A stretch of DNA of 27,878 nucleotides from an uncultured Ardenticatenaceae bacterium (GCA_964600035.1 CAZRIB010000005.1:1-27878), one strand, 5' to 3'. Shown: positions 50-27,837, counted from the stretch's first letter. Numbers and translations are program-made. The notes: generated from the sequence alone by a model not told the origin.

Positions 50-1585
50 GTGGCTCAAATAAGTCGTCGAGAATTTCTAAAATTATTGCCAGCCGTTCCA
101 CTTTTCAAAGTGACATGGCCATACCTGGTTACAGAGGCAGCAAAATATCAGCAAGACCCTAACAGCCCCAACATTCTCTTCCTTATCTTCGACACATTTT
201 CCGCCAAACATATTTCCATGTACGGCTACCAAAGGGAGACCACACCCCACCTGGCTGCATTGGCAGAGCGGGCAACCATCTTCCACAGCCACAGGGCAGC
301 GGCAAACTTCACCTCACCGGGGACATCCTCCATTTTGACCGGAACATACCCCTGGACGCACCGTGCCTTTCATTTGCACGGCCTTGTTAATGAGGCATAT
401 GCTGACAAAAACATCTTTAGTCTGCTGCCAGACCATTACCATAAAGCCGCCTACACCCACAATTTGCTGGTTTTTTCCCTGCTGCACCAATTTCGCAGCC
501 ACGTAGATGATTTGCATAAAACCCGGGAACTGTGTTTGTCTGACACGCAGTTTGCCGACCGCCTTTTCTTTAATGATTACAGCCCGGCATTTTGGGGTGA
601 ATGGCTGGCCCTGCGCGGCGGCGCAACACCGCCATCTTCTTTGTTCCTGTCTATGGTAGATCGGGGACGGCGTTTTTTGAATAAACACCAGATTGAAGCG
701 GAATATGCGGCAGATTACCCGCGCGGTATTCCCAATTTGCACAGCCTGTATTTCCGGCTGGAAGATGCGATTGACTGGATTGGTGAGCAGGCGGCAGGCT
801 TGCCACGGCCGTATTTTGGATACTTCCATCTGCTGCCACCTCATGAACCTTACACCACCCACCGCGACTACATTGATGTATTTGCCGATGGCTGGCAGCC
901 CGTTGAAAAAGAAAAGGGTTTTGTTGGCGAAGGTATTCCACAGGCAAAGCTAAACAAAGAGCGGCGGGCTTATGATGAGTATATTGCTTTTGTGGATGCT
1001 GAAATCGGCCGTTTGTTCGCTAAAATGGAAGCGGATGGCGTGTTGGATAACACCTATGTGGTGTTGACATCCGATCATGGTGAACTGTTTGAGCGCGGCA
1101 TTCGCGGCCATGTGACGCGGGCATTGTATGACCCGCTTTTGCATGTGCCGTTGATGATTGTGAAACCCGGTCAGCAAAAACGGGAGGATGTATTTAGCCA
1201 TACCAGTGCGGTTGATTTGCTGCCTACCTTTTTGCATGTAACCGGCCAGCCCGTTCCAGAGTGGGCAGAAGGGCAGATTTTGCCCACATTTACAGATGCC
1301 GCACCAGACGGTCAACGGCCGACTTTTTCACTTGAGGCAAAAAGTAATGCCAAACAAGGCCCGTTAACCAAAGCGACAGCCACGATGGTAAAGGATGATT
1401 ACAAGCTGATTTACTATTTTGGGTATCGGCCAGGGGAAGAGTTGTATGAGTTGTTTGATTTGAAAAATGACCCTGAGGAGTTGACGAATTTGGTTGATGT
1501 GAAAACGGCCGTATTCGCCGACATGCAGACCGAACTAAAACGTAAAATCGAAAGCGTCAACGAACCATTTGCGCACAAATCCTGA
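50..1585 (+). CDS. Tat-exported sulfatase-like hydrolase/transferase (alkaline phosphatase superfamily)
   Basis: N-terminal SRREFLK twin-arginine motif. It has the PNILFLIFDT metal-binding start, TSPGTSSILTG in place of CxPxRxxxLTG, HLLPPHEPY, VVLTSDHGE and LHVPLMI. GTG start preceded by GGAGCA (39-44). Confidence 0.85.
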   Translation: MAQISRREFLKLLPAVPLFKVTWPYLVTEAAKYQQDPNSPNILFLIFDTFSAKHISMYGYQRETTPHLAALAERATIFHSHRAAANFTSPGTSSILTGTYPWTHRAFHLHGLVNEAYADKNIFSLLPDHYHKAAYTHNLLVFSLLHQFRSHVDDLHKTRELCLSDTQFADRLFFNDYSPAFWGEWLALRGGATPPSSLFLSMVDRGRRFLNKHQIEAEYAADYPRGIPNLHSLYFRLEDAIDWIGEQAAGLPRPYFGYFHLLPPHEPYTTHRDYIDVFADGWQPVEKEKGFVGEGIPQAKLNKERRAYDEYIAFVDAEIGRLFAKMEADGVLDNTYVVLTSDHGELFERGIRGHVTRALYDPLLHVPLMIVKPGQQKREDVFSHTSAVDLLPTFLHVTGQPVPEWAEGQILPTFTDAAPDGQRPTFSLEAKSNAKQGPLTKATATMVKDDYKLIYYFGYRPGEELYELFDLKNDPEELTNLVDVKTAVFADMQTELKRKIESVNEPFAHKS

Positions 1586-1630
1586 AACCAACCTGAGTCA
1601 CCTGACACTTTTTTAACAACAAGGAATGGG

Positions 1631-1737
1631 ACACAGATTGACACAGATAAACTCCGTAATCCGTAATTCGTAATTCGTGTGCTCTACCTCTGGTAACTTC
1701 GTCGGAAAACGGTATACGGACTTCGGGTTACGGGTGC
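1631..1737. repeat. Intergenic tandem repeats: ACACAGAT x2, (C/T)CGTAAT x3.5, TACGG-type inverse units
   Basis: ACACAGATTG ACACAGATAA (1631-1650), CCGTAAT CCGTAAT TCGTAAT TCGT (1654-1678) and TACGGACTTCGGGTTACGGG (1715-1734). The last matches the reverse complement of 23404-23421 at 16/18 nt. Confidence 0.8.
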
Positions 1738-1771
1738 TAGATACCAACAAAACAAGAGGAAATTCGGTAAT

Positions 1772-2554
1772 ATGGTAGCCAATTTAAGAAACCTGTATCA
1801 CTATCGAGAAATGCTCGGCATGTGGATCTTCCGTGAGATTCGCGTGCGTTACAAACAATCCTTTTTAGGCGCGGCCTGGGCTATTTTGCAGCCATTGGTA
1901 CTCATGCTCATGTTTACCCTGGTTTTTTCAGTCATGGCGCGCTTCCCCACAGATGGCATTCCATACCCCATCTTTTCCTACACCGCCCTGCTGCCCTGGA
2001 CACTGTTTGCCACATCCGTCAGTTTTGGTGTGTCATCGCTCATCAACAACATGACGCTGGTGACAAAAACGTACTTCCCCAGGGAAGTGCTGCCGATGGG
2101 TGTCATTGGTGCGGCGCTGTTTGATTACCTGATCGCGTCGTCCATTTTCATTGCCATGCTCATCTATTACCAAATTCCGCTGACAATTCACTTTTTGTGG
2201 ATTCCTGTCTTTTTGGTGGTTCAAATTTTCTTGATGATGGGCATTATTTTACTGGGATCGGCCGTAACGGTGTTTTACCGTGATGTGCGTTTTGTGGTGC
2301 CGCTGCTGGTGCAGTTGTGGCTCTATGCCACGCCTATCATTTACCCGGTAACGCTTGTTCCAGAGGCGTATCGCACGTTGTATATGCTTAACCCGATGGC
2401 GGGCATTGTGGAATCTTACCGGCAGGTAATCTTGCGTGGGCAGCCGCCGAATGCGCTGGATTTGGGTCTGGCTGCGGCCGTTTCCGTTAGCCTGTTTGTG
2501 GTGAGTTACATCATTTTTAAGAAACTGGAAGTACGCTTTAACGACATCATATAA
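1772..2554 (+). CDS. wzm: ABC-2 type polysaccharide export permease (Wzm)
   Basis: REIRVRYKQSFLGAAWAILQPL, YATPIIYP and LNPMAGIVESYR motifs; about six TM segments; adjacent to Wzt. Confidence 0.93.
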   Translation: MVANLRNLYHYREMLGMWIFREIRVRYKQSFLGAAWAILQPLVLMLMFTLVFSVMARFPTDGIPYPIFSYTALLPWTLFATSVSFGVSSLINNMTLVTKTYFPREVLPMGVIGAALFDYLIASSIFIAMLIYYQIPLTIHFLWIPVFLVVQIFLMMGIILLGSAVTVFYRDVRFVVPLLVQLWLYATPIIYPVTLVPEAYRTLYMLNPMAGIVESYRQVILRGQPPNALDLGLAAAVSVSLFVVSYIIFKKLEVRFNDII

Positions 2555-2561
2555 AATGTGA

Positions 2562-2623
2562 CAGGTGGCAGGTGGCAGGTGGCAGGTGGCAAGGAACATG
2601 ACCTGCCACCTGCCACTTGCCAC
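2562..2623. repeat. Heptamer (CAGGTGG)n tandem repeat in inverted arrangement forming a 23-bp hairpin
   Basis: CAGGTGG x4 (2562-2589) followed by ACCTGCC ACCTGCC ACTTGCC AC (2601-2623). 2566-2588 pairs with 2601-2623 with one G:T, leaving a 12-nt loop. Confidence 0.92.
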
Positions 2624-2675
2624 GTACTTTGCTTTAATCGTTAATCATCAATCTTTGTTTTTGAAGGAATTATCT

Positions 2676-3953
2676 ATGAAACCTGCGGTACGATTTGAAA
2701 ATGTATCGAAGAAGTATGTCTTGGGAACCGGGCATTCCAGCCTGGGCGCATTAATTAAAACGCCGGTCAAACGGCTGTTGGGACGTCCTGTGCCGGAACC
2801 CCAGGTGTTGTGGGCGTTGAAAGATGCTTCGTTCGATATTGAACCGGGTAAGGCTTTGGGTTTGATTGGGCCAAATGGCTCTGGCAAGACGACTTCGCTG
2901 AAGCTGCTCTCTAAAATTACGTTTCCGACGTCGGGGCGCATTTCGGTAAACGGCCGTATCTCCGCACTCATCGAACTAGGGGCAGGCTTCCATCCAGACC
3001 TCACCGGGCGCGAAAACGTCTACCTCAACGCCACCATATTAGGCATGAAACGCCACGAAATTGATGCCCGTTTTGACCGCATCGTAGAATTTTCCGGGCT
3101 GGAGCGATTCATCGACACACCCGTCAAACGGTACTCATCCGGCATGTACGTGCGGCTGGGCTTTTCCGTAGCCGCCCATGTGGAGCCAGACATCTTGCTG
3201 GTAGATGAAGTATTGGCAGTTGGCGACGCCCAATTCCGCCAAAAGTGTGCCCGCCGCATTGAAGAGCTGCAAAAAAAGGGCACAACCATCGTATTTGTTG
3301 CCCACAACCTTTACCTGGTAAAAAGCGTGTGTGATGAAGCCGTCTTTTTGCTAAACGGACAAATTCAGGACAAAGGGCCGGTAGATGACGTAATTGGCAG
3401 CTATGAAAAGTACCTGCATGAGCTGCAAGCCCGTTCATTGGAAGAAGAAAAAGTAGACCCCTTGCGCAGCGACAGACAGCGCGGCGTGACCACAAATTTG
3501 AAGATAACCGGCATTGATGTGTTAAATGAGCAGGGTAAAAAGCCGGAACAGTTCCACCACGATGAACCTGTGGAAATCCGCATTCATTACCAGGCAAAAA
3601 AGAAGCTGGAAAAGCCAAATGTCATTTTGCGCATTCGCCGGGCAGATGGCACAACAGCGGCCATGATTCGCACAGCTGATTATGGGATGGCACTGGATCC
3701 ATTGGAAGATAACGGCACGATTTCTTTGAAAATTGACCCCATTCAGTTGGCGGGCGGGGCTTATCTGATTTCTGCTTCATTGCAGGGGCCGGTGGATGGT
3801 GTTGGATTGGCCTGGGCAGATTCTCGCTGGTTCCAGGTGTCGGGTGTGAGTGTGAGCTTTGAAGAAAGCGGCGGCGTTTTTGTGCCGAATTTGGCGGCTG
3901 CCAAAGTGATCCCCGGGAATGTGAATCCGCGGGGTGAAAGTGTGCGGGTATAA
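2676..3953 (+). CDS. wzt: Polysaccharide export ABC ATPase (Wzt) with C-terminal Wzt_C carbohydrate-binding extension
   Basis: Walker A GPNGSGKTT, signature YSSGMYVRLGF, Walker B ILLVDEVLAVGD, and a ~170-aa C-terminal extension. Start moved to ATG 2676 (after AAGGA) because the ORF-track extension from 2565 only translates an intergenic repeat hairpin. Confidence 0.93.
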   Translation: MKPAVRFENVSKKYVLGTGHSSLGALIKTPVKRLLGRPVPEPQVLWALKDASFDIEPGKALGLIGPNGSGKTTSLKLLSKITFPTSGRISVNGRISALIELGAGFHPDLTGRENVYLNATILGMKRHEIDARFDRIVEFSGLERFIDTPVKRYSSGMYVRLGFSVAAHVEPDILLVDEVLAVGDAQFRQKCARRIEELQKKGTTIVFVAHNLYLVKSVCDEAVFLLNGQIQDKGPVDDVIGSYEKYLHELQARSLEEEKVDPLRSDRQRGVTTNLKITGIDVLNEQGKKPEQFHHDEPVEIRIHYQAKKKLEKPNVILRIRRADGTTAAMIRTADYGMALDPLEDNGTISLKIDPIQLAGGAYLISASLQGPVDGVGLAWADSRWFQVSGVSVSFEESGGVFVPNLAAAKVIPGNVNPRGESVRV

Positions 3954-3959
3954 GGAGCA
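3954..3959 (+). promoter_or_regulatory. Recurrent Shine-Dalgarno variant GGAGCA
   Basis: GGAGCA lies 3-5 nt before the starts at 50 (GTG), 3965 (TTG), 13562 (TTG), 22111 (ATG) and 27241 (ATG), at positions 39, 3954, 13552, 22101 and 27232. Confidence 0.65.
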
Positions 3960-3964
3960 GGCAT

Positions 3965-5659
3965 TTGGCTAACCGGAAAAAGACGTTGTTGGTTGGATTG
4001 GATGCGGCGTGCTGGTCTTTTGTACGGCCGTTACTGGACGCTGGCAAAATGCCCGCCCTTTCTCGTTTAATGGCTGGCGGCACAGCCGGAACGCTGGACT
4101 CTACCATGCCAGCCCTGACACCGGCGGCGTGGTCGTCCATTATTACCGGCAAAAATCCGGGGAAACACGCCATCTTTGACATGACGCGCCGCCGTCCGCA
4201 CAGCTATGAGAGTATGCCGGTAAACGGCCGTATGCGGTTAGGCACACCATTTTGGAAACGGCTCAATGAGGCAGGCCTTCGCGTGGGGCTGGTCAACATT
4301 CCCTTTACCTACCCGCCGGATGAGGTGGCAGGCTTTGTGGTTCCCGGCTTTGGCGCACCGGGGTCTGTGTCCAATTTGGTGTACCCGCGTGAAGCACTGG
4401 CCGATATTGAAGAAAAGTACGGCCGTTACGAACCTGTGGTGTCACCGGAGCTGTTAAGAAGCGGCCGTTACCAGGACATTTACGAAGCCGAAGCCCACCA
4501 TCAGGCCAACCAGGTTGCCATTGCCATTGACCTGGCCGCCAAATACGATGTGGACGTGCTGGCCATCAACCTGATGCTGCTGGACCACATGAACCACAAA
4601 ATGCCCGACATAGAGCGGGTAGAAGCGGCCATTTTGCAGTTGGACAAAGATTTGCAGGCTTTGCTGGATGGCTTTGTGCCGGATAACGTGATGGTCATTT
4701 CTGACCACGGCACGCGGCGGGTAAAAGGGGACTTTTTGCTGCACGTTTGGCTGCGGGACAATGGCTATTCTGTGCAAAAGAAACGCCTGCCGACGGAAAA
4801 AGCGGCCATTGTGAACTGGATTTTTGTGCAGTGGCTGCAGCGTCACCGGGGCTGGTCTGGTTTTGGTGAAAAGGCTGCCCGCTTTTTGCTGCGAAAAATG
4901 GTGGCGGCACTGCCTGCGGGCTGGCTGAAGGGATTTTGGGCGCGGGTAGAGCGGGATATTCCCGGCGCGCAGGTGTATGCCGAATTTAGTGAGGAACTGG
5001 ATTATGAAAAGACGCGGGTTTATCCCGGCGCATCATATTCCAGTGTGTTGTACTTTAATGTGAAAGGGCGCGAGCCGCAGGGTGTGGTTGATCCGGCAGA
5101 GGTGGCGGCGCTGGCGGCGGAGATTCGGCAGAAGTTGACGGCCGTTACCGACCCGGACAGCGGCGAACCCTTGTTTACGGCCGTATACACCGCCGACGAG
5201 CTTTACACAGGTGCGGCCAAAGTCATTGCGCCAGACATCATCATAGACAGCTACGCCGCAAAGTGGAACATTCTCTCCACTTTTCGGCGGGGGGCGCACG
5301 CCGAAGCGCTGCGAGACCGGTATTTTGCCAACAATTTCAAGGATTTTGGGCATCACAGCCGCGATGGCATTTTTGTGTTTGCCGGGGAAGCTTTTCGCAG
5401 TGACGGTTCTTTTGGCACGGCGGGGTCTGTGATGGATGTGCCGGCGACGCTGCTGCATTTGTGTGGTGTGCCTGTGCCGAATGATTGGGACGGCCGTTCC
5501 CTGACTGAGACGTTTAATCCGGCTTTTCTGGCTGCCCATCCTTTGACTTGCCAGCCCGGTGATGCGGAAACGGCCGTGACGTTTGATGATGGGCTGTACA
5601 GTGATGAGGAAAATGACGAGATTTTTAGCCACTTGCGGGCATTGGGTTACGTGGACTAG
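3965..5659 (+). CDS. Alkaline phosphatase family protein (type I phosphodiesterase/nucleotide pyrophosphatase-like)
   Basis: LLVGLDAA, STMPALTPAAWSSIITGKNPGKHAIFD, VMVISDHG, GHHSRDGIF and C-terminal LRALGYVD. TTG start after GGAGCA (3954-3959). Confidence 0.85.
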   Translation: MANRKKTLLVGLDAACWSFVRPLLDAGKMPALSRLMAGGTAGTLDSTMPALTPAAWSSIITGKNPGKHAIFDMTRRRPHSYESMPVNGRMRLGTPFWKRLNEAGLRVGLVNIPFTYPPDEVAGFVVPGFGAPGSVSNLVYPREALADIEEKYGRYEPVVSPELLRSGRYQDIYEAEAHHQANQVAIAIDLAAKYDVDVLAINLMLLDHMNHKMPDIERVEAAILQLDKDLQALLDGFVPDNVMVISDHGTRRVKGDFLLHVWLRDNGYSVQKKRLPTEKAAIVNWIFVQWLQRHRGWSGFGEKAARFLLRKMVAALPAGWLKGFWARVERDIPGAQVYAEFSEELDYEKTRVYPGASYSSVLYFNVKGREPQGVVDPAEVAALAAEIRQKLTAVTDPDSGEPLFTAVYTADELYTGAAKVIAPDIIIDSYAAKWNILSTFRRGAHAEALRDRYFANNFKDFGHHSRDGIFVFAGEAFRSDGSFGTAGSVMDVPATLLHLCGVPVPNDWDGRSLTETFNPAFLAAHPLTCQPGDAETAVTFDDGLYSDEENDEIFSHLRALGYVD

Positions 5660-5665
5660 AACAAA

Positions 5666-6964: not shown

Positions 6965-7090
6965 AGAGTGAGGATTGAAGATTAAAGATTGAGGATTAAA
7001 GATTAAAAGATTGGAGATTGGGGATTGGGGATGTCTTTAATCGTTAATCATCAATCATCATTCATTAATCATCATTCATTATTCATTATT
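6962..7090. repeat. Heptamer GATTRRR tandem array followed by a T(T/C)A(A/T)TC(A/G) array (STRR-like)
   Basis: GATTGAA GATTAAA GATTGAG GATTAAA GATTAAA..GATTGGA GATTGGG GATTGGG, then TTAATCG TTAATCA TCAATCA TCATTCA TTAATCA TCATTCA TTATTCA. Confidence 0.9.
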
Positions 7091-7107
7091 TACTGGAAAA
7101 GTGTGTC

Positions 7108-8656: not shown

Positions 8657-8701
8657 CTTTTGCGCTTTTCTGAAATATGTGAATGCTTACCCAGTAACAA
8701 T

Positions 8702-11253: not shown

Positions 11254-12504
11254 ATGCGGATTTTGGTTATAACCAATTATTACCCCCCTTTTGAACAGGG
11301 CGGGTGGGGACAATTAACTTACGATGTCGTACAGCAGTTAAAATCGCGAGGCCATGAGGTGTTGGTGTTAACCAGCCAGCACCGCCGCAGTGAGCTGCCT
11401 GCGCCGGAAGAGGGTGTGGAACGGACGCTTTTTTTGGAAAGCCCGGATCACATCCATTACAAAATGAAATATACATTGGCTTACCGTCGGGAGGAGGCTG
11501 CCAACAAGCGAATTGTGGCACATCACTGCCGCCAATTTGCCCCGGATGTGGTGTATGTAAATGGCATGTGGAATTTGCCGGTTTGTGTGGCGCAAACGGC
11601 CGAATCCTGTTTACCCGGTCGTGTGGCCTACTACATGGCCAGCTATTGGCCTGCCGAACAGGATGCCCACTCTGCTTTTTGGCAGGATATGCCGGATGGC
11701 TGGAAGCGGCTGCCCAAACAGTTGGTTGGACAGGCGTTGGTAAATTGGTGGCTTAAACCTGCTGCCCGCAACCGGCTGGATTTTCGGGTTGTGATGTGTG
11801 TGAGTGATTATTTGCGGCGGCGCATTGTGGCTGAAGCGGGTATTCCCGAAGAACGGACGCGGGTGGTGTATAACGGAATTGATTTGGCTGATTTTCCGTT
11901 ACGGCCGTTACCCGCACACACAAGCAGCACCCGCACCTTGAAACTGCTTTACGCCGGACGCTTTCATCCTGACAAAGGTGTCCATACCGTAATCGAAAGC
12001 CTGGGGCAGTTATGGCAAAAAACGCCATCCCTGCCGGTTTCTGTAACATTGGTAGGCAAGGGCGCACCGGCTTACGAAGAAGAACTGCATCATCTGGTAC
12101 AAAAACTGGGCATCGCAAACTGGATAACCTTCAAGCCATTTGTGGCTCGCGAAAAGATGCCCGCCATACTTAGAGAACACGACGCACTCATATTTCCATC
12201 GATTTGGCCGGAACCACTGGCCCGTATGGTACAAGAGGCAATGGCTTCTGGCTTGATTGTCATCGGTACAACCACTGGCGGTACACCGGAGATTTTGCAA
12301 GACGGCCGTAACGGCCTGACATTCCCGGCAGGGAATGCCGCCATGTTGGCAGAAAAAATCTTATGGCTGACCCAAAACCAAGATCAATGGCACAATCTGG
12401 CACAGGCTGCCCGAAAAACAGTGGAACAGCAATTTACACTCAACCGGATGGTGAACGAACTGGAAGCGCAGTTCGACCAACTCATTCAGACCAAGGCGAA
12501 GTGA
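11254..12504 (+). CDS. Glycosyltransferase family 4
   Basis: MRILVITNYYPP (start moved to ATG 11254), VVYNGID, LLYAGRFHPDKGV and PSIWPEPLARMVQEAMASG. Confidence 0.92.
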   Translation: MRILVITNYYPPFEQGGWGQLTYDVVQQLKSRGHEVLVLTSQHRRSELPAPEEGVERTLFLESPDHIHYKMKYTLAYRREEAANKRIVAHHCRQFAPDVVYVNGMWNLPVCVAQTAESCLPGRVAYYMASYWPAEQDAHSAFWQDMPDGWKRLPKQLVGQALVNWWLKPAARNRLDFRVVMCVSDYLRRRIVAEAGIPEERTRVVYNGIDLADFPLRPLPAHTSSTRTLKLLYAGRFHPDKGVHTVIESLGQLWQKTPSLPVSVTLVGKGAPAYEEELHHLVQKLGIANWITFKPFVAREKMPAILREHDALIFPSIWPEPLARMVQEAMASGLIVIGTTTGGTPEILQDGRNGLTFPAGNAAMLAEKILWLTQNQDQWHNLAQAARKTVEQQFTLNRMVNELEAQFDQLIQTKAK

Positions 12505-13561: not shown

Positions 13562-14926
13562 TTGACCAAACCAAACGTCGTCTTGCTAACAATTGACACA
13601 TTACGCCTGGATCGTCTGGGCTGTTTTGGCTGTAACAAACCGCTGACCCCCAATATTGACCGGCTGGCGGCTGAAGGTGTGCGTTTTTCGCAGGCCATTA
13701 CCGGTGGTTCATGGACGCAGGCTTCTTTCCCTGTCATCATGACATCGACTTATGCGTCGATGTATGGTGGCTGTTTGGGGAAATTGTCTGCGGAACGGCC
13801 GTCTCCCGCAGACGCACTGACCAAACACGGCTACCGCACAGCCGCCTTCTCCACCAGCCCCCTCCTTAGCCGCGCCTATGGCTACGACCGCGGCTTCCAG
13901 CACTTTGTAGACCTTATTCCCAACGAAAAAGACCCGGCCTTGCGAGAAATGAAAGGCGGCCAGCGCCTGCTGCGCAGTCCACTGACCCATAAAGTAAGCA
14001 AAGCCATTGGCAAGCAAACCCGGCCAGCCAAGGTCTATGTGGATGCGGGCGATTTAATTGATGCCGCCAGTCAGTGGATGGGAGAAGATGCGCATCCTTT
14101 CTTTGCCTGGGTGCATTTTATGGATGTGCACTGGCCTTACCACCGGGAAGACGCGCTTTCCAAGCCAGAGGAAATTGCACAAGCCTGGCGCGATTTGTCC
14201 CACCTGCATGAGGCGAACTGGAACGGCGCGCCCATCAGCCCGGAGCAGCGCGACCATTACATCCGTTTGTATGAGGACGCATTGGTGTATACCGACGCGC
14301 AAATTGGCCGTTTGTTAGACGATATGGCGGCCAGAGGTGTGTTGGATAATACGATTATTGTGTTGGTGTCTGATCACGGTGAGGAATTTTTGGAACACGG
14401 CCGTTGGGGACATTGGGAAGATAACCTGTATGATGAAATTTTGCGGGTTCCGCTTATTTTTCGTCTGCCAGGACTGGATGGCGCACGCAATATCTCGCGG
14501 CAGGTAAGCACCATCGACATTATGCCAACGATTCTGGATTTGTGTGGCTGCCCGCCGCCGACTGGCATGTTGGGGCATTCTCTTGTGCCGCTTTGGCAGG
14601 AGCCAGGTGCGGATTATCCAGTGGAAACGGCCGTTACCGAAATGTGGCGCGACCATTGGCACATCATTGCCGTGCGCACAGAGACCCATAAATATATCTG
14701 GGACAGCAAAAAGCCGGATGCATCTCGCCTGTATGATTTGCTCAACGACCCGGAAGAACGGGTAAACGTCGCTGACCGCCATCCCGACATTGTGCGAAAG
14801 TTGCATTCTGTTGTAGATGCCCGGCTGGCTGATATGGCGCTGACTGCCCCGGAAACGGCCGTTACCGAACCCACCCTCGACGACGATGTGCTGGCCCGTC
14901 TGCGTGGACTGGGTTACGTGGAATAA
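13562..14926 (+). CDS. Sulfatase-like hydrolase/transferase (alkaline phosphatase superfamily), no signal peptide
   Basis: PNVVLLTIDTLRLD, SWTQASFPVIMTS, WVHFMDVHWPY, VLVSDHGEEF, LRVPLIF and C-terminal LRGLGYVE. TTG start after GGAGCA (13552-13557). Confidence 0.87.
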   Translation: MTKPNVVLLTIDTLRLDRLGCFGCNKPLTPNIDRLAAEGVRFSQAITGGSWTQASFPVIMTSTYASMYGGCLGKLSAERPSPADALTKHGYRTAAFSTSPLLSRAYGYDRGFQHFVDLIPNEKDPALREMKGGQRLLRSPLTHKVSKAIGKQTRPAKVYVDAGDLIDAASQWMGEDAHPFFAWVHFMDVHWPYHREDALSKPEEIAQAWRDLSHLHEANWNGAPISPEQRDHYIRLYEDALVYTDAQIGRLLDDMAARGVLDNTIIVLVSDHGEEFLEHGRWGHWEDNLYDEILRVPLIFRLPGLDGARNISRQVSTIDIMPTILDLCGCPPPTGMLGHSLVPLWQEPGADYPVETAVTEMWRDHWHIIAVRTETHKYIWDSKKPDASRLYDLLNDPEERVNVADRHPDIVRKLHSVVDARLADMALTAPETAVTEPTLDDDVLARLRGLGYVE

Positions 14927-17396: not shown

Positions 17397-18808
17397 CTTC
17401 TTTGAGACGTTTGACCCACAATGAAGCATTGCAGCGCAAGGTGATTAAAGCCCTCATAATTATTGGGGTGCCTGTGTTGGGCTTTGCCCTGGTGCAGTAC
17501 CGGTCAGATACGATGATGCTGGCGGCGCTGCTGGCTGTGCCGCTGGGGCTGCTGGCTGTTACGCTGCTGCTGCGCTGGCCGCCGTTGGGGTTGCTGGCTG
17601 TGGTGGCTGTGGCGTTGATTGTGCCGTTTGATATTCCGCGTGTGGGTACGGTGGCGATTATGTTGGCCGGGTTAACGGCCGTTTGGCTGGGTGATATGTT
17701 CATGCGGCAGAGGCGGCTGGTTTTTGTGGTGTCTCCTACCATTCCGCCGCTGATCATGTTTACGGCCGTTGTCATCCTCTCCTTCATCATCGGCCAACTG
17801 CCCTGGTTTTACGTCTCCCAGGTTCCCATCGACCGGCAAATCGGCGGTGCAGCCATCTTCATTCTCTCCTTCGCCGCCTTCTTCATGGCCGCCCACCAAA
17901 TCCGCGACATCAAATGGCTAAAATACATGGTATTCGGTTTTATCGTACTGGCCATTCCATCCATCATATTTGGCCTGCGCATTTTACCCGCCCAAACATC
18001 CTTCCGGCTAAACCGCATGATTTACAGCACAAAAATCACCGGCGGCAGTCTGTATTGGTTGTGGCTTGCCGCATTCATTTTTAGCCAAATTTTAATCAAC
18101 AAAAAATTAGACAACCGTCTGCGAATCATTATGGCGTTTTTGTTAGTCGGGCAGTTCTATCTGGCAATGGGACGCAAGCGTGCCTGGACATCAGGTTGGT
18201 TTCCGGCACTCGTTTCATTGGCAATCATCCTGGTGGCATACCGGCCTAAGCTGGCTTTGCCGTTAACCTTAGGGGCGCTGTTGGTTGGGGCACTGGGTTC
18301 TCAGCAAATATATGATGCCGTATTTATTGGTGACAATGAATACAGCGCCATCACCCGCCTGGAAGCCTGGACAATCGTCACGGAAATCGCCAAAAAGAAC
18401 CCTATTCTGGGGCTTGGGCCAGGAAATTATTACAACTACACCACACTTTACTCCATTCGCGGCTGGTACGTGCAGTTTAATTCGCATAACAATTATGTGG
18501 ACATTCTCGCGCAAACCGGCATTTTGGGCATTATTTGTTTTTTGTGGTTTGCGGTGGTGGCTGGACGGCTGGCATGGCGGCTGCGTACTTTAGTGCCCAA
18601 AGGCGGTTTTACAGAAGCGTACGTATTTGGGGCGCTGGGTGGGCTGGTAGGCAGTATGGCCGCTGCCATGTTAGGTGATTGGGTGCTGCCCTTTGTGTTC
18701 AACATCGGCATTTTTGGCCTGCGTGCCAGCATCATTTTCTGGTTGGTAATGGGGGGGCTGGTTGCCATTGACCAGATGCTGATTAAAAAAATTCCAATTG
18801 ATGATTGA
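17393..18808 (+). CDS. O-antigen ligase / Wzy_C family membrane protein (possible O-oligosaccharyltransferase)
   Basis: About 12 TM segments. The late loop contains TRLEAW, PILGLGPGNY and HNNYVDILAQTGILG, the conserved His region of Wzy_C/WaaL. Confidence 0.85.
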   Translation: MTSLRRLTHNEALQRKVIKALIIIGVPVLGFALVQYRSDTMMLAALLAVPLGLLAVTLLLRWPPLGLLAVVAVALIVPFDIPRVGTVAIMLAGLTAVWLGDMFMRQRRLVFVVSPTIPPLIMFTAVVILSFIIGQLPWFYVSQVPIDRQIGGAAIFILSFAAFFMAAHQIRDIKWLKYMVFGFIVLAIPSIIFGLRILPAQTSFRLNRMIYSTKITGGSLYWLWLAAFIFSQILINKKLDNRLRIIMAFLLVGQFYLAMGRKRAWTSGWFPALVSLAIILVAYRPKLALPLTLGALLVGALGSQQIYDAVFIGDNEYSAITRLEAWTIVTEIAKKNPILGLGPGNYYNYTTLYSIRGWYVQFNSHNNYVDILAQTGILGIICFLWFAVVAGRLAWRLRTLVPKGGFTEAYVFGALGGLVGSMAAAMLGDWVLPFVFNIGIFGLRASIIFWLVMGGLVAIDQMLIKKIPIDD

Positions 18809-18921
18809 TTTCTGTAACGGGTATGTAAGCGGCAAGCAGTATGACTTGCAGCCTGCAAACCTGTAACGTGTCGTTGCTTTCATCCATTAACCATCAATCA
18901 TGACTTCACCAAAAAAGAAAT

Positions 18922-18993
18922 TGCGGAGGCGCAAAGGACGCGGAGAATTTGAAGTTATCAGAGAAAAATCTTTGTGTTCTCTGCGCCTCTGCG
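18922..18993. repeat. 9-mer-based imperfect inverted repeat (23-bp stem)
   Basis: TGCGGAGGCGCAAAGGACGCGGA (18922-18944) pairs with TTTGTGTTCTCTGCGCCTCTGCG (18971-18993); most deviations are G:U-compatible. Confidence 0.8.
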
Positions 18994-19049
18994 GTGAATT
19001 TAACCTTTTTTCAATGAACTCAATCTTTATTTTCAAAGGTGACTGACCT

Positions 19050-19874
19050 ATGTTTTCACAAATCGTATCCATAGCAGGGGAAGAACTCCGCTACCAATAC
19101 GTGCAAATTCGTCAAAAATTGACCCAAAACCACCACATACCAGCTAAAGTGCTGGTCAATGGCAGCCCCAAATCGGGCACAACCTGGATGGTGAAATTGA
19201 TTTCGTCTCTACCCGGCTACCGGGAAGTAGGCAATTATCAGGGGGATTTTCAAAAGTATTATCAGAGCGAATCGGGGGATGTCATTCATGGGCATGATCC
19301 GTTTTCTTTGGAATTAAAGCAGATTTTGGCTGAAGCAGGAATCAAGGTTGTGTTGATGGTGCGAGATCCACGTGATCAGTTGGTCTCGCGGATGTTCCAC
19401 ATAAAGCGCAGCCCCAAGCATGTCTGGCATGATCGCATGCAGGATATTGGCGTTGATGAAGCGTTGATGATGTGTATTGAAGGGCGTGAAAATTTACCGG
19501 CTACCAGTCAGGTAATTGCGCTTGCCCAGACGTGGATGGTTCCTGAAGCGGAGATGTTGTGTGTGCGTTATGAAGATATGCTGGCTGATCCGGTGACGCA
19601 TTTTTCCAAGGTGATGCAGTATATTGGCATGGAAGCGGATCATTTGCTGGCGCGGGTGGTGGTGGAGCGTAATCGCTTTGAGCGCCTGTCTGTGGGGAAG
19701 CGTATCTGGCAGCAGCAGCGGCGGCCTGGCCAGGAAGATGCCAACTCTCATTTTCGCAAGGGGATTGCGGGTGACTGGCGTAATTATTTGAAGCCGGAGC
19801 ATATTGCCCGTTTTAAGGAGTTGGCTGGCCGCCAGTTGATTGAGTTGGGCTATGAACAGGATATGGATTGGTAG
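19050..19874 (+). CDS. Sulfotransferase (Sulfotransfer_1-like)
   Basis: 5'-PSB GSPKSGTTW, 3'-PB MVRDPRDQLVS, and C-terminal RKGIAGDWRNY matching the RKGxxGDWKNxF motif. Confidence 0.9.
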   Translation: MFSQIVSIAGEELRYQYVQIRQKLTQNHHIPAKVLVNGSPKSGTTWMVKLISSLPGYREVGNYQGDFQKYYQSESGDVIHGHDPFSLELKQILAEAGIKVVLMVRDPRDQLVSRMFHIKRSPKHVWHDRMQDIGVDEALMMCIEGRENLPATSQVIALAQTWMVPEAEMLCVRYEDMLADPVTHFSKVMQYIGMEADHLLARVVVERNRFERLSVGKRIWQQQRRPGQEDANSHFRKGIAGDWRNYLKPEHIARFKELAGRQLIELGYEQDMDW

Positions 19875-19880
19875 CCTGTG

Positions 19881-20798
19881 ATGGTGAAGCTTTCTGTTGT
19901 GATTGTTAGCTGGAATACGGCCGATTTGCTGCGGGCATGCTTGCGCTCTGTTTATGAGCATCCGCCAACGGTGACGTTTGAGGTTTGGGTGGTGGATAAT
20001 GCGTCGCATGATGGTAGTGCGGAGATGGTGCGGCGTGAGTTTCCGCAGGTGAAACTGGTGGCGAAGGATGTGAATGGGGGGTTTGCGGCAGGAAATAATG
20101 AGGCGCTGCCGCTGTGTGCCGGGGAGTATGTGCTGTTGTTGAATCCTGATACGGTGGTGAAGCCGAATGCGCTGCAAGCGTTGGTGGATTTTTTGGATGA
20201 AACGCCGGATGCAGGCGCGGCGGGGTCGATGCTGTTGAACCCGGATGGTTCTTTGCAGCCGTCGGCTTTTCCGGCGCCGACGCTGCGGCGGGAGTTGTGG
20301 CGGTTGTTTCATTTGGACAGGATACGGCCGTATGGCATTTACCACATGCAGCAGTGGGACACGGCCGTTCCCCGTGAAGTAGACGTACTGCAAGGGGCAT
20401 CCTTGCTCATTCGCCGCGACATTTTGAACCAGATTGGCTTGTTCGACACAACCTACTTTATGTACTCCGAAGAAGTCGATTTATGCCGTCGGCTGCAGTT
20501 GGCTGGCTGGCGGTTGTATTGGGTTCCTGCTTCTCGCGTGGTGCATTATGGCGGGCAAAGCACCCGGCAAATTGCAGAGCAGATGTTTATTCAGCTTTAC
20601 CGGGGCAAGCTGCTTTATTTTCGCAAGCATTACGGCCGTTTTCATGCGTGGGCATACAAAGCAGTTTTGGCACTGGCTTCCGTGGCGCGGCTGGCACTCA
20701 CCCCGCTGGTCGTGGTGCAGTCCGCCGAAAAACGGCAGCAAAGCCTGACATTGGCGCGGTATTATGCCCATCTTGTCAAAGCCATTCCCTCCTTTTAA
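19881..20798 (+). CDS. Glycosyltransferase family 2 (WbbL-like)
   Basis: LSVVIVSWN, VVDNASHDGS, GFAAGNN, LLLNPD and YFMYSEEVDLCRR. ATG 19881 or GTG 19878. Confidence 0.92.
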   Translation: MVKLSVVIVSWNTADLLRACLRSVYEHPPTVTFEVWVVDNASHDGSAEMVRREFPQVKLVAKDVNGGFAAGNNEALPLCAGEYVLLLNPDTVVKPNALQALVDFLDETPDAGAAGSMLLNPDGSLQPSAFPAPTLRRELWRLFHLDRIRPYGIYHMQQWDTAVPREVDVLQGASLLIRRDILNQIGLFDTTYFMYSEEVDLCRRLQLAGWRLYWVPASRVVHYGGQSTRQIAEQMFIQLYRGKLLYFRKHYGRFHAWAYKAVLALASVARLALTPLVVVQSAEKRQQSLTLARYYAHLVKAIPSF

Positions 20799-22066: not shown

Positions 22067-22110
22067 TCTTTCATCCATCAATCATCAACCTTTATTCACA
22101 GGAGCAACAG

Positions 22111-23403: not shown

Positions 23404-23468
23404 CGTAATCCGAAGCCCGTACACCCGTGATTGGGATGCAGATAACGGGTTACGGGCAACGGATTACG
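23404..23468. terminator. Long imperfect hairpin between convergent genes; candidate bidirectional terminator built from CCGTAAT/TTACGG heptamers
   Basis: CGTAATCCGAAGCCCGTACACCCGTGAT (23404-23431) pairs with ATAACGGGTTACGGGCAACGGATTACG (23442-23468). It starts immediately after the + strand stop (23403) and ends 8 nt before the - strand stop (23477). There is no clear U-tract. Confidence 0.55.
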
Positions 23469-23476
23469 GATACCGT

Positions 23477-24589
23477 CTACATACCAAAACAGTAATTTGT
23501 AAAGAAGCAGATGCGCCAGCTTATCCAGCCGATTTGTGAGAACAGGTACCACAGGTATGCGCCAATGAGCAGCACTCCGGCGTAACGGCCGATTGCCCAG
23601 CGCCGTACGATTAACAAAAACAACAGCGCTATCACCGTTGCAAACAAGAGAATAACAGAAGATTCCAGGTTTTCTGTAACAACCTGCATATTTTCACCGC
23701 GCCACAAAATGATGAACACCCAGGGCAGGCCCAGCCCAATGGCAATATCGAAGATGTTGGAGCCGACAGCATTGGCAATGGCCATGTCGCCTTGTCCTTT
23801 TCTGGCAACGACAATGGAACTCATCAGGTCGGGAATGCTGGTTCCGGCGGCCAGAATGGTGAGAGCGATGATGACTTCTGGTACACCGATGGCGTGGGCA
23901 ATTTGTACGGCCGATTCCACCATGAGGTGTGAAAGCAAGGCCAGAAAAATGATGGAGACGGCAAAGTTGAAGATGAGGAGATGCGGCCGTTTCCGCAAAT
24001 CGGCAAAAAAGAGCGACAACGTTTTGTCCAGCACATTGCGCCATGTCCACCCGCTGGCACGCAGGGCTTGTTGGGGACTTTCCTCCTCCTCCTCATTTTG
24101 CGCATTATCCGCCTCAATTTCATAAGGCAGCCACTTCTTCCACAGGCCAAACGAGAACAAGTAAACGACATACAAGCTCACATACATGAGCGCGTCAACC
24201 AGAGTGATGGTGCCATCTCGAAACGTAAACAGCAGCAGCAAGATGCAGACAATGTAAAAAATCAGGTCACGGATGACAGGCTGCCATGTCAGCACAGCCC
24301 GTTTAACCAATGCCGAAGCCCCAATAATGACCAAAATGTTAAAAATGGCTGACCCCACAATTGTGCCAGCACCCATTGCCTGCTGTTCCTGCACCCGAAA
24401 CAGCGCCAAAATGGAAACAAACAACTCCGGTGCAGATGAGCCGACTGCCATGAACGTAGCCCCGGCAATATCGGAGGAAAGTTTCAGCCGGTCAGAGATA
24501 ATTTCCAGCGTTTCAACAAAATAGACTTCTACAACCTGGGCGAGCAGGTAAAAAGCCAGTAACAGTTCCAAAATCCACAGGATGATCAT
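23477..24589 (-). CDS. Calcium/sodium antiporter (CaCA family, NCKX-like)
   Basis: Alpha-1 repeat GATFMAVGSSAPELF...GTIVGSAIFNIL and alpha-2 repeat ILAAGTSIPDL...GDMAIANAVGSNIFDI. Two 5-TM halves joined by an acidic loop (NEEEEES). Confidence 0.9.
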   Translation of the reverse strand: MIILWILELLLAFYLLAQVVEVYFVETLEIISDRLKLSSDIAGATFMAVGSSAPELFVSILALFRVQEQQAMGAGTIVGSAIFNILVIIGASALVKRAVLTWQPVIRDLIFYIVCILLLLFTFRDGTITLVDALMYVSLYVVYLFSFGLWKKWLPYEIEADNAQNEEEEESPQQALRASGWTWRNVLDKTLSLFFADLRKRPHLLIFNFAVSIIFLALLSHLMVESAVQIAHAIGVPEVIIALTILAAGTSIPDLMSSIVVARKGQGDMAIANAVGSNIFDIAIGLGLPWVFIILWRGENMQVVTENLESSVILLFATVIALLFLLIVRRWAIGRYAGVLLIGAYLWYLFSQIGWISWRICFFTNYCFGM

Positions 24590-24955
24590 GATTACTTTTT
24601 TGCTTCCTTGTTTGTTGGTGTGTGCCTGTTTTGTACGGCGAGATTTTTACAGGGTCAGAAGGATACACGCAAATTGAAAAACACAAAAACTGAAGGCGGG
24701 TTGGTGTAAGCCGGTTGGTAAGAAAGGATCGTTACTATTCCACTGTAAAAGCCAACAATGATAAATAGCTTGGTTACATGTTGAACTTTTTTCTGAAATG
24801 GGGGAGCCATCGTGAACGGCTGGGCAAACCACAAAAGGTGTTTGAGTGTGAGAACATCTTTTTCCTTGTGGGCTGCTTGTGTAATTGGCAAAAAATCCCG
24901 GGTGTTTTTGTGCTAATTGCATCACACATTGTTGGCGCCATGAATTTATCTGCTT

Positions 24956-26182
24956 ATGGATGTACTCTTTATTGTTCCCTATGTGCCCAATTTGGTGAGG
25001 ACACGCCCCTATAACTTTATTCGAGCATTGAGTGAGCGCGGTAACCGGGTGACGGTGTTGACTGTGCGCGCCAGTGAAGCGGATGAGGCGGATTTGGCTG
25101 CGCTGCGAAAGATGGTGTATGCGGTGGAGGCGGTGTCTTTGCCTGTTTGGCGTTCCCTGCTGAATTGTTTGCCGGCTTTGTTGTCGGGTGTGCCTTTGCA
25201 AACACGCTTTTCGTGGGATGCGGGTCTGTTTTCGCGGTTAAACGGCCGTTTCCCCTTTGACGTGGTTCATGTCGAACACCTTCGTGGCGTGCGCTATGCC
25301 CTGCATCTCAAAAAACACACCCAACTACCCGTTGTATGGGACAGCGTAGACTGCATTACCCATTTGTTTAAGCAGGCCGCTGCACAAAGCAAAAACAATA
25401 TGCTTCGCTGGCGCAGCCGCTTTGAATTGGGGCGCACAGAGCGGTATGAGCGGTGGCTTTTGGACAAATTTGACCAAATTTTGGTGACGTCGCATCTGGA
25501 TAGGGAAGCGATGCAGTCGCTGAACCCCCAACAGCCAGCACCCATTACGGTGGTTCCCAATGGGGTGGATTTGAACTATTTTCGGCCAGACACGGCCGTT
25601 ACCCGGCAAGAAAAATCACTCGTTGTCAGCGGCAAGATGAGCTACCACGCCAATATCAGCATGGTGCTGCATCTTGTGGAAAAAATTATGCCGCATGTGT
25701 GGCAAGAACAGCCAGACGTGACCCTCACCATTGTGGGCAAAGACCCGACCAAAGAGGTGGTGGCATTGGCTGAACATCCAAACATTACAGTAACGGGGAC
25801 GGTGCCGGAGATACGGCCGTATCTCCAACAAGCCGCCATCGCCCTCACCCCACTCACTTACGGCGCAGGTGTCCAAAACAAAGTACTGGAAGCAATGGCC
25901 TGCGGCACACCCGTTGTCAGCACAACACGCGCCATCAAACCGCTGGGTGTCCAGCCGGGGCGCGCTCTCCTGGCTGCCGATGACCCGGCCCAATTTGCCC
26001 GGCACGTCCTGGAACTGCTGGCAAACCCGGCACAACGCGCCCAAATCGGCCGTGCCGCCAGAGCATACGTAGAACAGAACCACAACTGGCACACACTGGC
26101 TGGAGACCTGGAGCAAATTTACCAACAAGCAAAACATCAACACAACCCGGTATTCAAACAAGCCGCCACAGCCGCAAAATAG
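24956..26182 (+). CDS. Glycosyltransferase family 4
   Basis: VVPNGVDLNYF, VSGKMSYHANI and GAGVQNKVLEAMACGTPVV. Confidence 0.92.
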   Translation: MDVLFIVPYVPNLVRTRPYNFIRALSERGNRVTVLTVRASEADEADLAALRKMVYAVEAVSLPVWRSLLNCLPALLSGVPLQTRFSWDAGLFSRLNGRFPFDVVHVEHLRGVRYALHLKKHTQLPVVWDSVDCITHLFKQAAAQSKNNMLRWRSRFELGRTERYERWLLDKFDQILVTSHLDREAMQSLNPQQPAPITVVPNGVDLNYFRPDTAVTRQEKSLVVSGKMSYHANISMVLHLVEKIMPHVWQEQPDVTLTIVGKDPTKEVVALAEHPNITVTGTVPEIRPYLQQAAIALTPLTYGAGVQNKVLEAMACGTPVVSTTRAIKPLGVQPGRALLAADDPAQFARHVLELLANPAQRAQIGRAARAYVEQNHNWHTLAGDLEQIYQQAKHQHNPVFKQAATAAK

Positions 26183-26253
26183 GTCATTTTCAACGAATTA
26201 GAATCGTTGCAATTAGTTTGTGTAATGGAACAATAGCAAAGGTGTAGCAGTCC

Positions 26254-27231
26254 ATGATCATTGTGCAATCCCCATTAAGAGTTAGTTTGTTCGGCGGCGG
26301 AACCGATTTCGCCGACTTTTACAAGGAACATGGCGGGTGTGTCCTGTCCTCCGCCATCGACAAATTCATCTTCGTCACCATAAAACAGCGTTTTGATGAC
26401 AAAATTCGCGTTGGCTACACACGAACAGAAATGGTAGACAGCATCGATGAAATTCAACACGAATTGATTCGAGAAGCACTCCGGGTTACGGGCATCCAAA
26501 AAGGGGTGGAAATTACCACAATGGGCGACATCCCCTCCGAAGGTTCGGGGCTGGGTTCTTCCAGCACAGTTACCGTAGGGGCTTTGCATGCCATGTATGC
26601 CTACCAAAAGGAATTGGTGCTGTCGGAGCGGTTGGCGCGGGAAGCCTGCTACATTGAAATTGAAAAATTAGGAAAGCCCATTGGTATCCAAGACCAATAC
26701 ATTGCGGCTTATGGTGGTTTGCGTTTTATGGAATTTATGCCGGATGGGCGGGTAGTTGCTAATCGTGCTGTCTTTGATGACCATACGCTGCGCCGTTTGA
26801 ATGAAAACCTGCTTTTGTTCTTTACAGGTGTTACGCGCAAAGCCGATAACATTCTTTCAGAACAAAAAAGCAACATTCAGGATAAAACATCAATTTTGTG
26901 CCAGATGAAATCCATTGCTTACACAGCGTTTCAGGAACTGCAAAAAGGGCATTTTCGGGCGATTGGTGAGCTTTTGGATGAGAGCTGGCAGTTGAAGAAG
27001 CGGCTGGCCAGCCAAATTAGCAACGGTGTGCTGGATGAGATGTATGAAACGGCAAAGGCGGCCGGGGCAATTGGCGGCAAAATTTCAGGCGCGGGCGGCG
27101 GCGGTTTTTTGTTGGTTTATGTGCCTAAAACACATCATGAGGATGTGCGGCAGGCGTTGAGTCATTTGCAAGAATTACCGTTTCGATTGGGGCAGGATGG
27201 CAGTAAGGTCATTTTTGATTATCAACGATGA
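26254..27231 (+). CDS. hddA: D-glycero-alpha-D-manno-heptose-7-phosphate kinase (GHMP kinase)
   Basis: [31 protein letters not shown] and [12 protein letters not shown]; adjacent to gmhA. Confidence 0.85.
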
Positions 27232-27240
27232 GGAGCAGCG

Positions 27241-27837
27241 ATGAATCACGTAAGACATTATTTTTCGGAAATAACAGAGACTTTGACGCGCATTGATGAA
27301 GGCCCGATTAATCAGGTGATTGGTTTGCTGCATGAGGCACGGGTAAACGGCCGTCAAGTGTTCATCATGGGCAACGGCGGCAGTGCATCCACCGCATCCC
27401 ATTTTGTATGCGACCTGGCCAAAAACACCCGCCAGCCAGATTGGCCGCATTACCGCGTTATCGGCCTTACAGACAATATGGCTATCTTTTCTGCCTATGC
27501 CAACGATGAAGGGTATGAAAACGTCTTTGCCATGCAGCTCGCCAATCTGGTACAGCCGGGAGATGTCGTTATCGGCATTTCAACCAGCGGCAACTCGCAG
27601 AATGTATTGCGTGGCATTGCCCTGGCCAATGAAAAAGGGGCTACAACAGTCGGTTTTACCGGTTTCGATGGCGGTAAATTGGCAGGAATGGTTGATATTC
27701 ATTCCCACACACCCAGTTATTGCATTGAACACGTCGAAGATATTCACTTGATGCTGGAGCATTTAATTACCAAAGTGCTGCGGGAGATGACAGAAACCGT
27801 TGCTGTTGAGCAATGTCTTGGCACATCTGTGTCATAA
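27241..27837 (+). CDS. gmhA: Phosphoheptose (sedoheptulose-7-phosphate) isomerase, SIS domain
   Basis: [44 protein letters not shown] and EDIHLMLEH. Confidence 0.88.

Follow-up and report, generated by a model that had tools for sequence, protein, structure and literature searches.

A 27.9-kb contig of an uncultured Anaerolineae bacterium (contig C5 of metagenome bin G000, analysed over its whole length and called the window below) contains 53 exact copies of the octameric palindrome ACGGCCGT, and each copy marks a drop from G/T-rich to C/A-rich composition on the plus strand. The asymmetry is site-specific, independent of gene orientation, additive between neighbouring sites and mostly synonymous, and it co-varies with site density among related genomes. 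We consider it very probable that some site-anchored, strand-polar process exists. The original prediction, made from the window alone, proposed a site-directed process acting symmetrically from each palindrome; it is supported by the specificity for the full 8-mer, the orientation independence, the additivity, the behavior of a second palindrome, TGCCGGCA, and the scaling with density. As the mechanism we tentatively favor a tract of excision and resynthesis that resembles mismatch repair, has one polarity, and starts at ACGGCCGT.

Abundance of the palindrome

Dinucleotide-preserving shuffles of the window predict 0.46 copies of ACGGCCGT, against the 53 observed. The whole bin (4.35 Mb in 706 contigs, 97% complete) has 8,329 copies, or 1.9 per kb, which makes ACGGCCGT its commonest 8-mer, with an observed-to-expected ratio of about 50 under a second-order Markov model. 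All contigs of at least 5 kb contain it, and the spacing between copies is near exponential, with a mean of 478 nt. Genes in the bin were called from open reading frames (ORFs) and codon statistics. All three codon phases are used by the palindrome (4111, 2330 and 1064 copies), another 824 copies are non-genic, and the ORFs are intact. One-off variants are concentrated at the outer bases, with 350-400 copies of each outer-base variant, and the sites lie within a weak 16-bp extended consensus, GGAA-ACGGCCGT-TTCC. When three other genera were compared, 3 of 5, 4 of 9 and 2 of 2 positions were common at the same codon and phase, a small sample in which about 0.01 is expected by chance.

ACGGCCGT is therefore a highly iterated palindrome (HIP) of one Anaerolineae family. 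It is the most over-represented octamer, it has spread by substitution within and between genes with no inserted element, and its positions are partly kept between relatives. The C-terminal 2.2 kb of rpoB (G000:C17:13886-16063; L003:1501-3678) has no copy, and the same region has one or two in three relatives; about four would be expected from the genome average.

The skew flip inside the window

The 53 copies, each 8 nt long, form an array from 805 to 27354. They start at 805, 1505, 2950, 4024, 4224, 4419, 5138, 5177, 5490, 5570, 5699, 5850, 5929, 6371, 7139, 7258, 7387 and 7405; at 7870, 7946, 8105, 9139, 9950, 10418, 10668, 11901, 12302, 13185, 13795, 14397, 14627, 14855, 15208, 15388, 15983 and 16174; and at 16767, 16947, 17325, 17675, 17762, 20324, 20361, 20632, 21070, 21217, 21423, 21966, 22540, 25242, 25592, 25813 and 27347. 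With flanks of 12-112 nt, the changes in GC and TA skew across the sites (dGC and dTA) are 0.273 and 0.179, and none of 2,000 random placements reached these values (standard deviation 0.036).

The flip can be followed at single sites. In the Wzt ABC ATPase gene (2950..2957), 16 of 20 third codon positions are G or T before the site and 17 of 20 are C or A after it. The site in a sulfatase gene (13795..13802) has G:C counts over 60 nt of 19:10 upstream and 10:31 downstream, and its third positions score 15/20 and then 18/20. Two sites in GT4 glycosyltransferase genes behave alike, one (11901..11908) with G:C counts over 60 nt of 18:10 upstream and 10:24 downstream, and the other (25813..25820) with 21:11 and 9:26 and third positions of 13/20 and then 17/20. 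Across the close pair at 17675 and 17762 (17675..17769), 18 of 20 third positions are G or T before the first copy and 14 of 20 are C or A after the second. At all of these places the hand counts given in the original prediction were reproduced to within one count.

Site-free gaps contain ramps from C-rich to G-rich, as had also been predicted. GC skew in 150-nt bins rises from -0.15 to +0.40 over 2958..4023, from -0.36 to +0.47/+0.25 over the 2.5 kb of 17770..20323, and from -0.25 to +0.33/+0.27 over 25821..27346, that is, from about -0.2/-0.36 to +0.3/+0.47 overall. The same polarity is found at 23984..23991, inside the sole minus-strand gene of the window, which encodes a Na/Ca exchanger (G:C 23:5 upstream and 12:17 downstream). 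The polarity had been predicted correctly for this gene, but the site, described then as a CGGCCG core, is a one-off variant of the palindrome, GCGGCCGT. The longest palindrome-free stretch of the window (22548-25241, 2.7 kb) holds this gene, and its skew profile is irregular with no clean ramp.

Genome-wide flip and controls

In a metaplot of the bin centered on ACGGCCGT, GC skew in the first 100 nt on either side is +0.14 (upstream) and -0.13 (downstream), and it reaches zero by about 900 nt. At third codon positions, GC skew (GC3 skew) passes from +0.32 to -0.30 in plus-strand genes and from +0.33 to -0.31 in minus-strand genes, both in plus-strand coordinates, which confirms the earlier claim that polarity does not depend on the gene strand. 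TA skew at third positions also flips. Isolated sites have a dGC of +0.239, against a background of -0.055 at positions without a nearby site, and the flip is zero at random positions. The site-centered metaplot, split by gene strand and compared with variants and random positions, is not flat, and the pattern is specific to the full 8-mer.

ACGGCCGT has the strongest flip of the 90 palindromic octamers that occur at least 30 times. The runner-up, CGTTAACG, probably derives its signal from two close copies of the palindrome (ACGGCCGTTAACGGCCGT), to judge from the words themselves. Only a background-level flip was found at one-mismatch variants in the six core positions, at [^A]CGGCCG[^T] (n=432) and at other GGCC sites. 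The original prediction had described the polarity at a CGGCCG core; without the outer A and T, CGGCCG stays at background, and the full 8-mer is needed. Outer-base variants retain about 30% of the full effect genome-wide, and they do so symmetrically on both sides; this weak yet symmetric response rules out half-sites acting independently. The controls, the permutation and the codon-position classes rule out chance, codon usage, amino-acid composition and gene orientation as the cause. Contig ends or assembly breaks at the sites are likewise ruled out, as contig ends do not fall at palindromes.

Shape and base spectrum of the skew

GC skew reaches +/-0.68 at four-fold degenerate sites that flank isolated copies of ACGGCCGT. 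In gaps of at least 1.5 kb it falls from +/-0.68 at 4-25 nt from the site to about 0.5 at 50-150 nt, and then to 0.33 (300-400 nt), 0.25 (400-600 nt) and 0.1 (800-1200 nt). The four-fold skew fits a function of the distance to the right site minus the same function of the distance to the left site. Neighboring sites thus add linearly, and it is this additivity that produces the sawtooth. For four-fold sites across the bin, a single exponential has A=0.64 and lambda=494 nt, and a two-exponential fit has components of 0.26/57 nt and 0.64/961 nt. The flanks are slightly stronger in skew at copies with the GGAA/TTCC consensus. No single skewed oligomer of the Chi or KOPS type accounts for the asymmetry of the flanks, and extended hairpins or inverted repeats at the palindromes are ruled out, the complementarity of the arms being that expected from composition at offsets 1 to 60.

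Near isolated sites the base frequencies of the 5'-flank strand are A.13, C.11, G.56 and T.20, compared with a baseline of A.20, C.30, G.29 and T.20. The ratios G/A and T/C are both up about 3-fold, purines make up 0.69, and T is barely raised. The original prediction had given C-to-T deamination as the observed direction, which was not borne out, since the gain of G and the purine excess dominate.

With the GC amplitude at four-fold sites set to 1.0, third positions as a whole have 0.97, first positions 0.185, second positions 0.10 and non-genic DNA 0.32. The TA amplitude is 0.26 in non-genic DNA and 0.41 at four-fold sites. That the amplitude is highest at four-fold sites agrees with the earlier description of the effect as synonymous. 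Because first and second codon positions are skewed as well, the pressure is strong enough to shift amino-acid composition. The ranking of codon positions (four-fold, then first, then second) is that of mutation pressure filtered by selection. Possible reasons for the low non-genic amplitude are a faster turnover of spacers or constraint on them.

The palindrome in other genomes

We compared 61 genomes of the same family, with genomes of the same order or class as outgroups. More than 3,000 copies of ACGGCCGT occur in 35 of the 61, with a maximum of 14,148, and no enrichment was found in the outgroups, which lie outside the family. Counts vary even within genera (3,631 versus 159, and 1,762 versus 129). 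In some family genomes ACGGCCGT is replaced by TGCCGGCA, with 4,690-8,850 copies in three and 924 in one. In 440 kb of one of these (two contigs of G015), TGCCGGCA has a flip of the same polarity, superimposed on a replication skew of about +0.03.

Amplitudes for the relatives were calculated over all positions with the kernel fixed from G000, except for G001, whose flat flank profile was not kernel-fitted. The amplitude for ACGGCCGT is 0.44 in G000 at 1.92 sites per kb, 0.35 both in G008 (2.16 sites per kb) and in the named relatives L005-L007 (1.90), 0.077 in G046 (0.84), 0.047 in G006 (0.58) and about 0 in G001 (0.14); for TGCCGGCA in G015 it is 0.21 at 1.74 sites per kb. Amplitude and site density are correlated (Spearman 0.96 over n=7 samples, which as kin are not independent). 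That skew strength follows motif abundance speaks for a single process behind both the maintenance of the palindrome and the biased fixation of changes in its flanks.

Other words are enriched in some of these genomes. G001 (L157-L176) contains CCGGCCGG/GGCCGGCC at about 1 per kb, yet neither word has a skew flip. In G046 (L185-L204), GCGGCCGC is enriched beside ACGGCCGT (187 per 400 kb), and in G006 (L205-L215), TCGGCCGA is enriched. Lineages seem to differ in the outer base pair of NCGGCCGN.

Source organism and gene content

The source organism belongs to the Chloroflexota, class Anaerolineae. Its RpoB is 80% identical to those of metagenome-assembled genomes labelled Anaerolineae or Chloroflexota, and homologues of one of its methylases carry the labels Ardenticatenaceae and Candidatus Leptofilum. 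The window holds a gene cluster of the sulfated-polysaccharide type, all on the plus strand except the Na/Ca exchanger gene (23477-24589). It includes two sulfatases, three sulfotransferases, about eight GT4/GT2 glycosyltransferases and Wzm/Wzt ABC export, together with a Wzy/O-antigen-ligase-like protein, PMT_2 proteins and a BNR-repeat protein.

Logan assemblies of two sequencing runs, SRR7905023 and SRR7905022, are 99.85% and 99.96% identical to positions 18981-27878 of the window (13 and 3 single-nucleotide polymorphisms, or SNPs). These contigs (L123, L124) match the window over 8-9 kb, palindromes included, and both end at 18981, where there is no palindrome. Only 16 SNPs separate the window from the two contigs, and no congeneric genome was available for polarizing substitutions; at compositional equilibrium, 16 SNPs would not be decisive on the direction of substitution.

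Comparison with known systems

HIP1 (GCGATCGC) and the other HIPs of cyanobacteria are octameric palindromes with about 1-2 copies per kb, which lie both inside and outside coding sequence and involve no indels. Like ACGGCCGT, they occur in all codon phases, have one-off variants mainly at the first or last base, keep their positions and give way to alternative palindromes in related genomes, and a link to a methylase is suspected for them (PMC4390886, PMC5861425). HIP1 differs in its sequence and phylum, and no cognate m5C methylase was found in G000. The kb-scale flip at ACGGCCGT is moreover absent at the 95 HIP1 sites of the Synechococcus elongatus plasmid pANL (dGC -0.004 +/- 0.017). A text search for "skew" in PMC4390886, PMC5861425 and PMC13756078 found no report of a flip at HIP1. 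The motif thus appears to be a variant of the HIP kind with a skew footprint that is undescribed. Our literature search, with subscription journals outside its scope, found no iterated palindromes of ACGGCCGT or TGCCGGCA, none in Chloroflexota, and no local skew at HIPs, uptake sequences or repair signals. Within that scope we agree with the original prediction that no described system leaves such a footprint.

Dam/MutH repair at GATC in Escherichia coli also uses a short palindrome with sub-kb spacing and acts over a range of about 1 kb, and MutS and MutL are present in both organisms. Elhai proposed that HIPs are mismatch-repair signals that saturate near one per kb (PMC4390886), and this model explains a density of that order and the accumulation of the motif. 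The differences are that MutH was not detected in G000, that its MutL has a nuclease motif of its own, and that skew does not change locally at GATC (dGC -0.009 +/- 0.011 for 240 sites from a 50-kb stretch of E. coli K-12), as is expected of bidirectional excision. A one-directional variant of methyl-directed repair would be new. Very-short-patch repair depends on a C5 methylase and Vsr, which were not found in G000, although such a pair exists in G015.

The skew of replication, from origin to terminus or in the "N-domains" of mammals, likewise combines G over C with T over A, jumps at a fixed point and ramps linearly between jumps, so that each palindrome looks like a miniature terminus. The period here is about 0.5 kb and not megabases, the jump is pinned to an 8-mer, and 0.68 greatly exceeds the replication skew of relatives, which is about 0.03. 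The short period, the anchoring and the amplitude together rule out replication forks. Chi sites (RecBCD or AddAB) and the DNA uptake sequences DUS and USS share with ACGGCCGT the character of short, abundant, lineage-specific motifs with dialects and a polar action on DNA ends or single-stranded DNA (ssDNA), and molecular drive is plausible for them. They are non-palindromic and orientation-dependent, whereas ACGGCCGT is a perfect palindrome. We know of no flanking gradient in composition at Chi or uptake sequences, and none was found in the literature search.

Candidate enzymes

We identified MutS1, MutS2 (Smr) and a MutL with the endonuclease motif DQHAxxExxxxE as the mismatch-repair genes of G000. 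Several drivers had been suggested in the original prediction; of these, no C5 methylase, Vsr, NucS or MutH (PF02976) was detected in this 97% complete bin. G000 also encodes a 617-aa MutS paralogue consisting only of domain V (contig C116; L216:4325-7143), whose gene forms an operon, with a 4-nt overlap, with an ExeM/NucH-like gene of the endonuclease/exonuclease/phosphatase (EEP) family. The paralogue and EEP nuclease were rejected as a driver, being present in 44 of the 61 family genomes irrespective of motif status.

Four PF01555 methylases were found in G000, two of them restriction-modification partners (BanI-like and TdeIII-like), one a sporadic orphan and one an orphan of 684 aa. The two type II restriction-modification pairs (contigs C183 and C92; L119, L121) are apparently complete. 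In one, a BanI-family endonuclease accompanies a PF01555 methylase fused to an HNH-repeat region; in the other, the methylase is followed by a TdeIII-family endonuclease. The sporadic orphan, on C295, is present in 7 of 61 genomes and was rejected for that reason.

The 684-aa orphan (contig C402), of the N4/N6 type, has orthologues in 46 of the 61 family genomes, being split in G012. In about 11 genera the orthologue lies between an HTH gene and a conserved NurA-orf-HerA block (for example G008:C1:590210-597958; L222:4210-11958). In G000 the block is on C65, with a 180-aa gene in the place of the methylase, and no methylase was found upstream of NurA in G015 or G064. The methylase adjoins NotI-family endonucleases in G063, G067 and G021. 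No orthologue was detected in the four TGCCGGCA-type genomes or in two motif-rich genera, and the methylase is present in many motif-poor genomes. This predicted methylase is our best enzyme lead, though not a clean correlate of the motif.

NurA was rejected as a driver, since it is found family-wide regardless of motif status, as were the NotI-family endonucleases, which are sporadic (9 of 61). In G015 a C5 methylase gene is followed by a Vsr gene (G015:C2:3160813-3162132; L221:6813-8132), with no restriction enzyme evident and an IS110 transposase nearby. This pair was rejected as the TGCCGGCA driver because the other TGCCGGCA genomes lack an orthologue of the methylase.

Proposed mechanism

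We propose that each copy of ACGGCCGT would anchor a strand-polar DNA transaction reaching about 0.5-1 kb into both flanks. A protein may recognize the 8-bp site, with its weak 16-bp consensus, and open one strand on each side; excision and resynthesis would then run in a single chemical direction, with the palindrome as the signal for strand entry. For any given position, the nearest site on one side would serve to correct errors or lesions in one strand, and its counterpart on the other side would serve the other strand. The efficiency of correction would drop with distance, so that next to a site nearly all fixed changes would come from one strand. An asymmetric error spectrum, with G and T gained on the uncorrected strand, would enrich every strand in G(T) on the 5' side of a site and in C(A) on the 3' side, and the contributions of neighboring sites would subtract to give the sawtooth.

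A one-directional tract would explain the sharp change of sign at the site, the additivity and the kb range. The very large amplitude could arise because the errors of one strand are corrected far better, nearly all fixed changes then being of single-stranded origin. The range of decay matches that of methyl-directed mismatch repair in E. coli, for which Elhai 2015 (PMC4390886) cites a comparable distance. MutS1, MutS2 and MutL are present in G000, and in about 11 genera of the family an orphan methylase occurs in the NurA-HerA operon, which encodes a 5'-3' nuclease and a translocase; methylation may play a part.

Misinsertions of the G.T type are a feature of the error spectrum of polymerases. 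Persistence of such misinsertions on the strand of the 5' flank would agree better with the observed base spectrum than simple deamination of cytosine does.

Several observations weigh against excision and resynthesis from the palindrome. A site-specific nuclease was not identified in G000, where MutH, Vsr and NucS were not found, and the endonuclease motif of MutL means that ordinary MutH-less repair needs no site. Many motif-poor relatives have the candidate methylase, which went undetected in two motif-rich genera, and both NurA and the MutS paralogue are close to universal across the family whatever the motif status. The purine excess of 0.69 requires an asymmetry in transversions that is not derivable from the model. 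With a non-genic amplitude of about one third of that at four-fold sites, a purely mutational process needs extra assumptions. The absence of a flip at GATC in E. coli and at HIP1 on pANL implies that a repair signal or HIP status alone gives no skew. Composition, finally, cannot separate the nascent from the template strand and so does not fix the direction of excision.

Alternative explanations

Given the recent data on HIP1, a hotspot of recombination or DNA uptake, with polar single strands, must be taken seriously as a rival, although we think it rather unlikely. In this explanation the palindrome would be a Chi-like or uptake-type hotspot for recombination or transformation, at which 3' ssDNA tails or imported strands end; the 5'-flank strand would be exposed as ssDNA or in heteroduplex and would become G/T-rich through damage or biased correction. 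The geometry provides the anchoring, the symmetry and a decaying tract, and molecular drive would also account for the accumulation of the motif and for its "dialects" in relatives, where motif identity shifts within the family and even within genera in the manner of uptake sequences. In Synechococcus PCC 7002, HIP1 raises transformation and recombination in a Chi-like manner that depends on methylation (bioRxiv 10.1101/2024.09.10.611283), and HIP1 correlates with DNA-uptake genes (PMC13756078). ComEC is present in G000, and the NurA-HerA end-resection genes are core to the family, but none of ComEC, NurA and HerA is specific to motif-rich genomes, and HIP1 on pANL has no flip. The base spectrum also poses difficulties: deamination of ssDNA predicts a gain of T and no purine excess, whereas a gain of G dominates, and C.C mismatches escaping MutS would, judging from MutS specificity, enrich C and not G on the invading strand. 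A skew of 0.68 would in addition need nearly all fixed changes near the sites to come by the recombination route.

Phosphorothioation by a Dnd system was among the drivers suggested in the original prediction. Modified GGCC within the motif would be nicked, oxidatively or by an enzyme, and nick translation would follow. G-ps-GCC is a known Dnd target, ACGGCCGT has a GGCC core, and contig C630 of G000 (L177:1-2078) carries a partial dndC, whose score of 368 bits is above the curated cut-off, with the gene of a DndD-like AAA_23/SMC_N ATPase after it. DndC does not, however, co-distribute with the motif or the skew. It occurs in 12 of the 61 family genomes, including the motif-poor G069, and was not found in the motif-rich, near-complete G008, G011, G006 and G024; the Dnd-positive G046 has a weak skew (0.077) and the Dnd-negative G008 a strong one (0.35). 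DndC is about 90% identical between genera, compared with about 80% for RpoB, which suggests a recently exchanged, mobile phosphorothioation island. TGCCGGCA also lacks GGCC. The distribution of DndC largely refutes a Dnd origin, which we regard as very improbable. Selection in place of mutation seems only a little less remote. Here the G-rich 5' and C-rich 3' flanks would themselves be functional, in translocase tracking or loading, in R-loops or in structure; the weaker effect in non-genic than in synonymous positions fits such a role, and the GGAA/TTCC consensus suggests recognition beyond 8 bp. Against this, the gradient runs smoothly over about 1 kb at essentially all four-fold sites, there is no carrying oligomer or arm complementarity, the position classes rank as under mutation pressure, and individual selection on thousands of synonymous sites per kb-scale flank is implausible. 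An artefact of assembly or sequencing, or a trivial effect of codon usage, amino-acid composition or chance, could be suspected in a fragmented bin of 706 contigs. This explanation is refuted and its probability is negligible: the two Logan assemblies agree with the window at the sites, relatives assembled in 2-7 contigs show the pattern, the motif is in every contig of at least 5 kb with contig ends off the sites, the ORFs are intact, orientation has no influence, and the permutation gave 0/2,000.

Implications

The function of HIPs has been open for three decades. The footprint described here is quantitative in its polarity, range, additivity and base spectrum, and so makes nicking, the direction of excision and methylation testable; if the proposed explanation is true, it would be the first mechanistic footprint of what HIPs do. 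An enzyme that reads an 8-bp, perhaps 16-bp, palindrome and acts on one strand would also be a useful reagent. A short motif may set the local mutation bias in these genomes, with G:C at four-fold sites of up to 5:1 and shifts at first and second codon positions, and this matters when, in these lineages, molecular evolution is modelled, codon usage analysed, origins located by skew or contigs binned. The finding bears as well on how the strand to be repaired is chosen in bacteria without MutH. It is possible, though we put it forward with reserve, that the Anaerolineae have a new system of repair and strand discrimination that would use an 8-bp palindrome with lineage dialects as its point of entry, work in one direction, dominate mutation genome-wide and drive the accumulation of its own motif.

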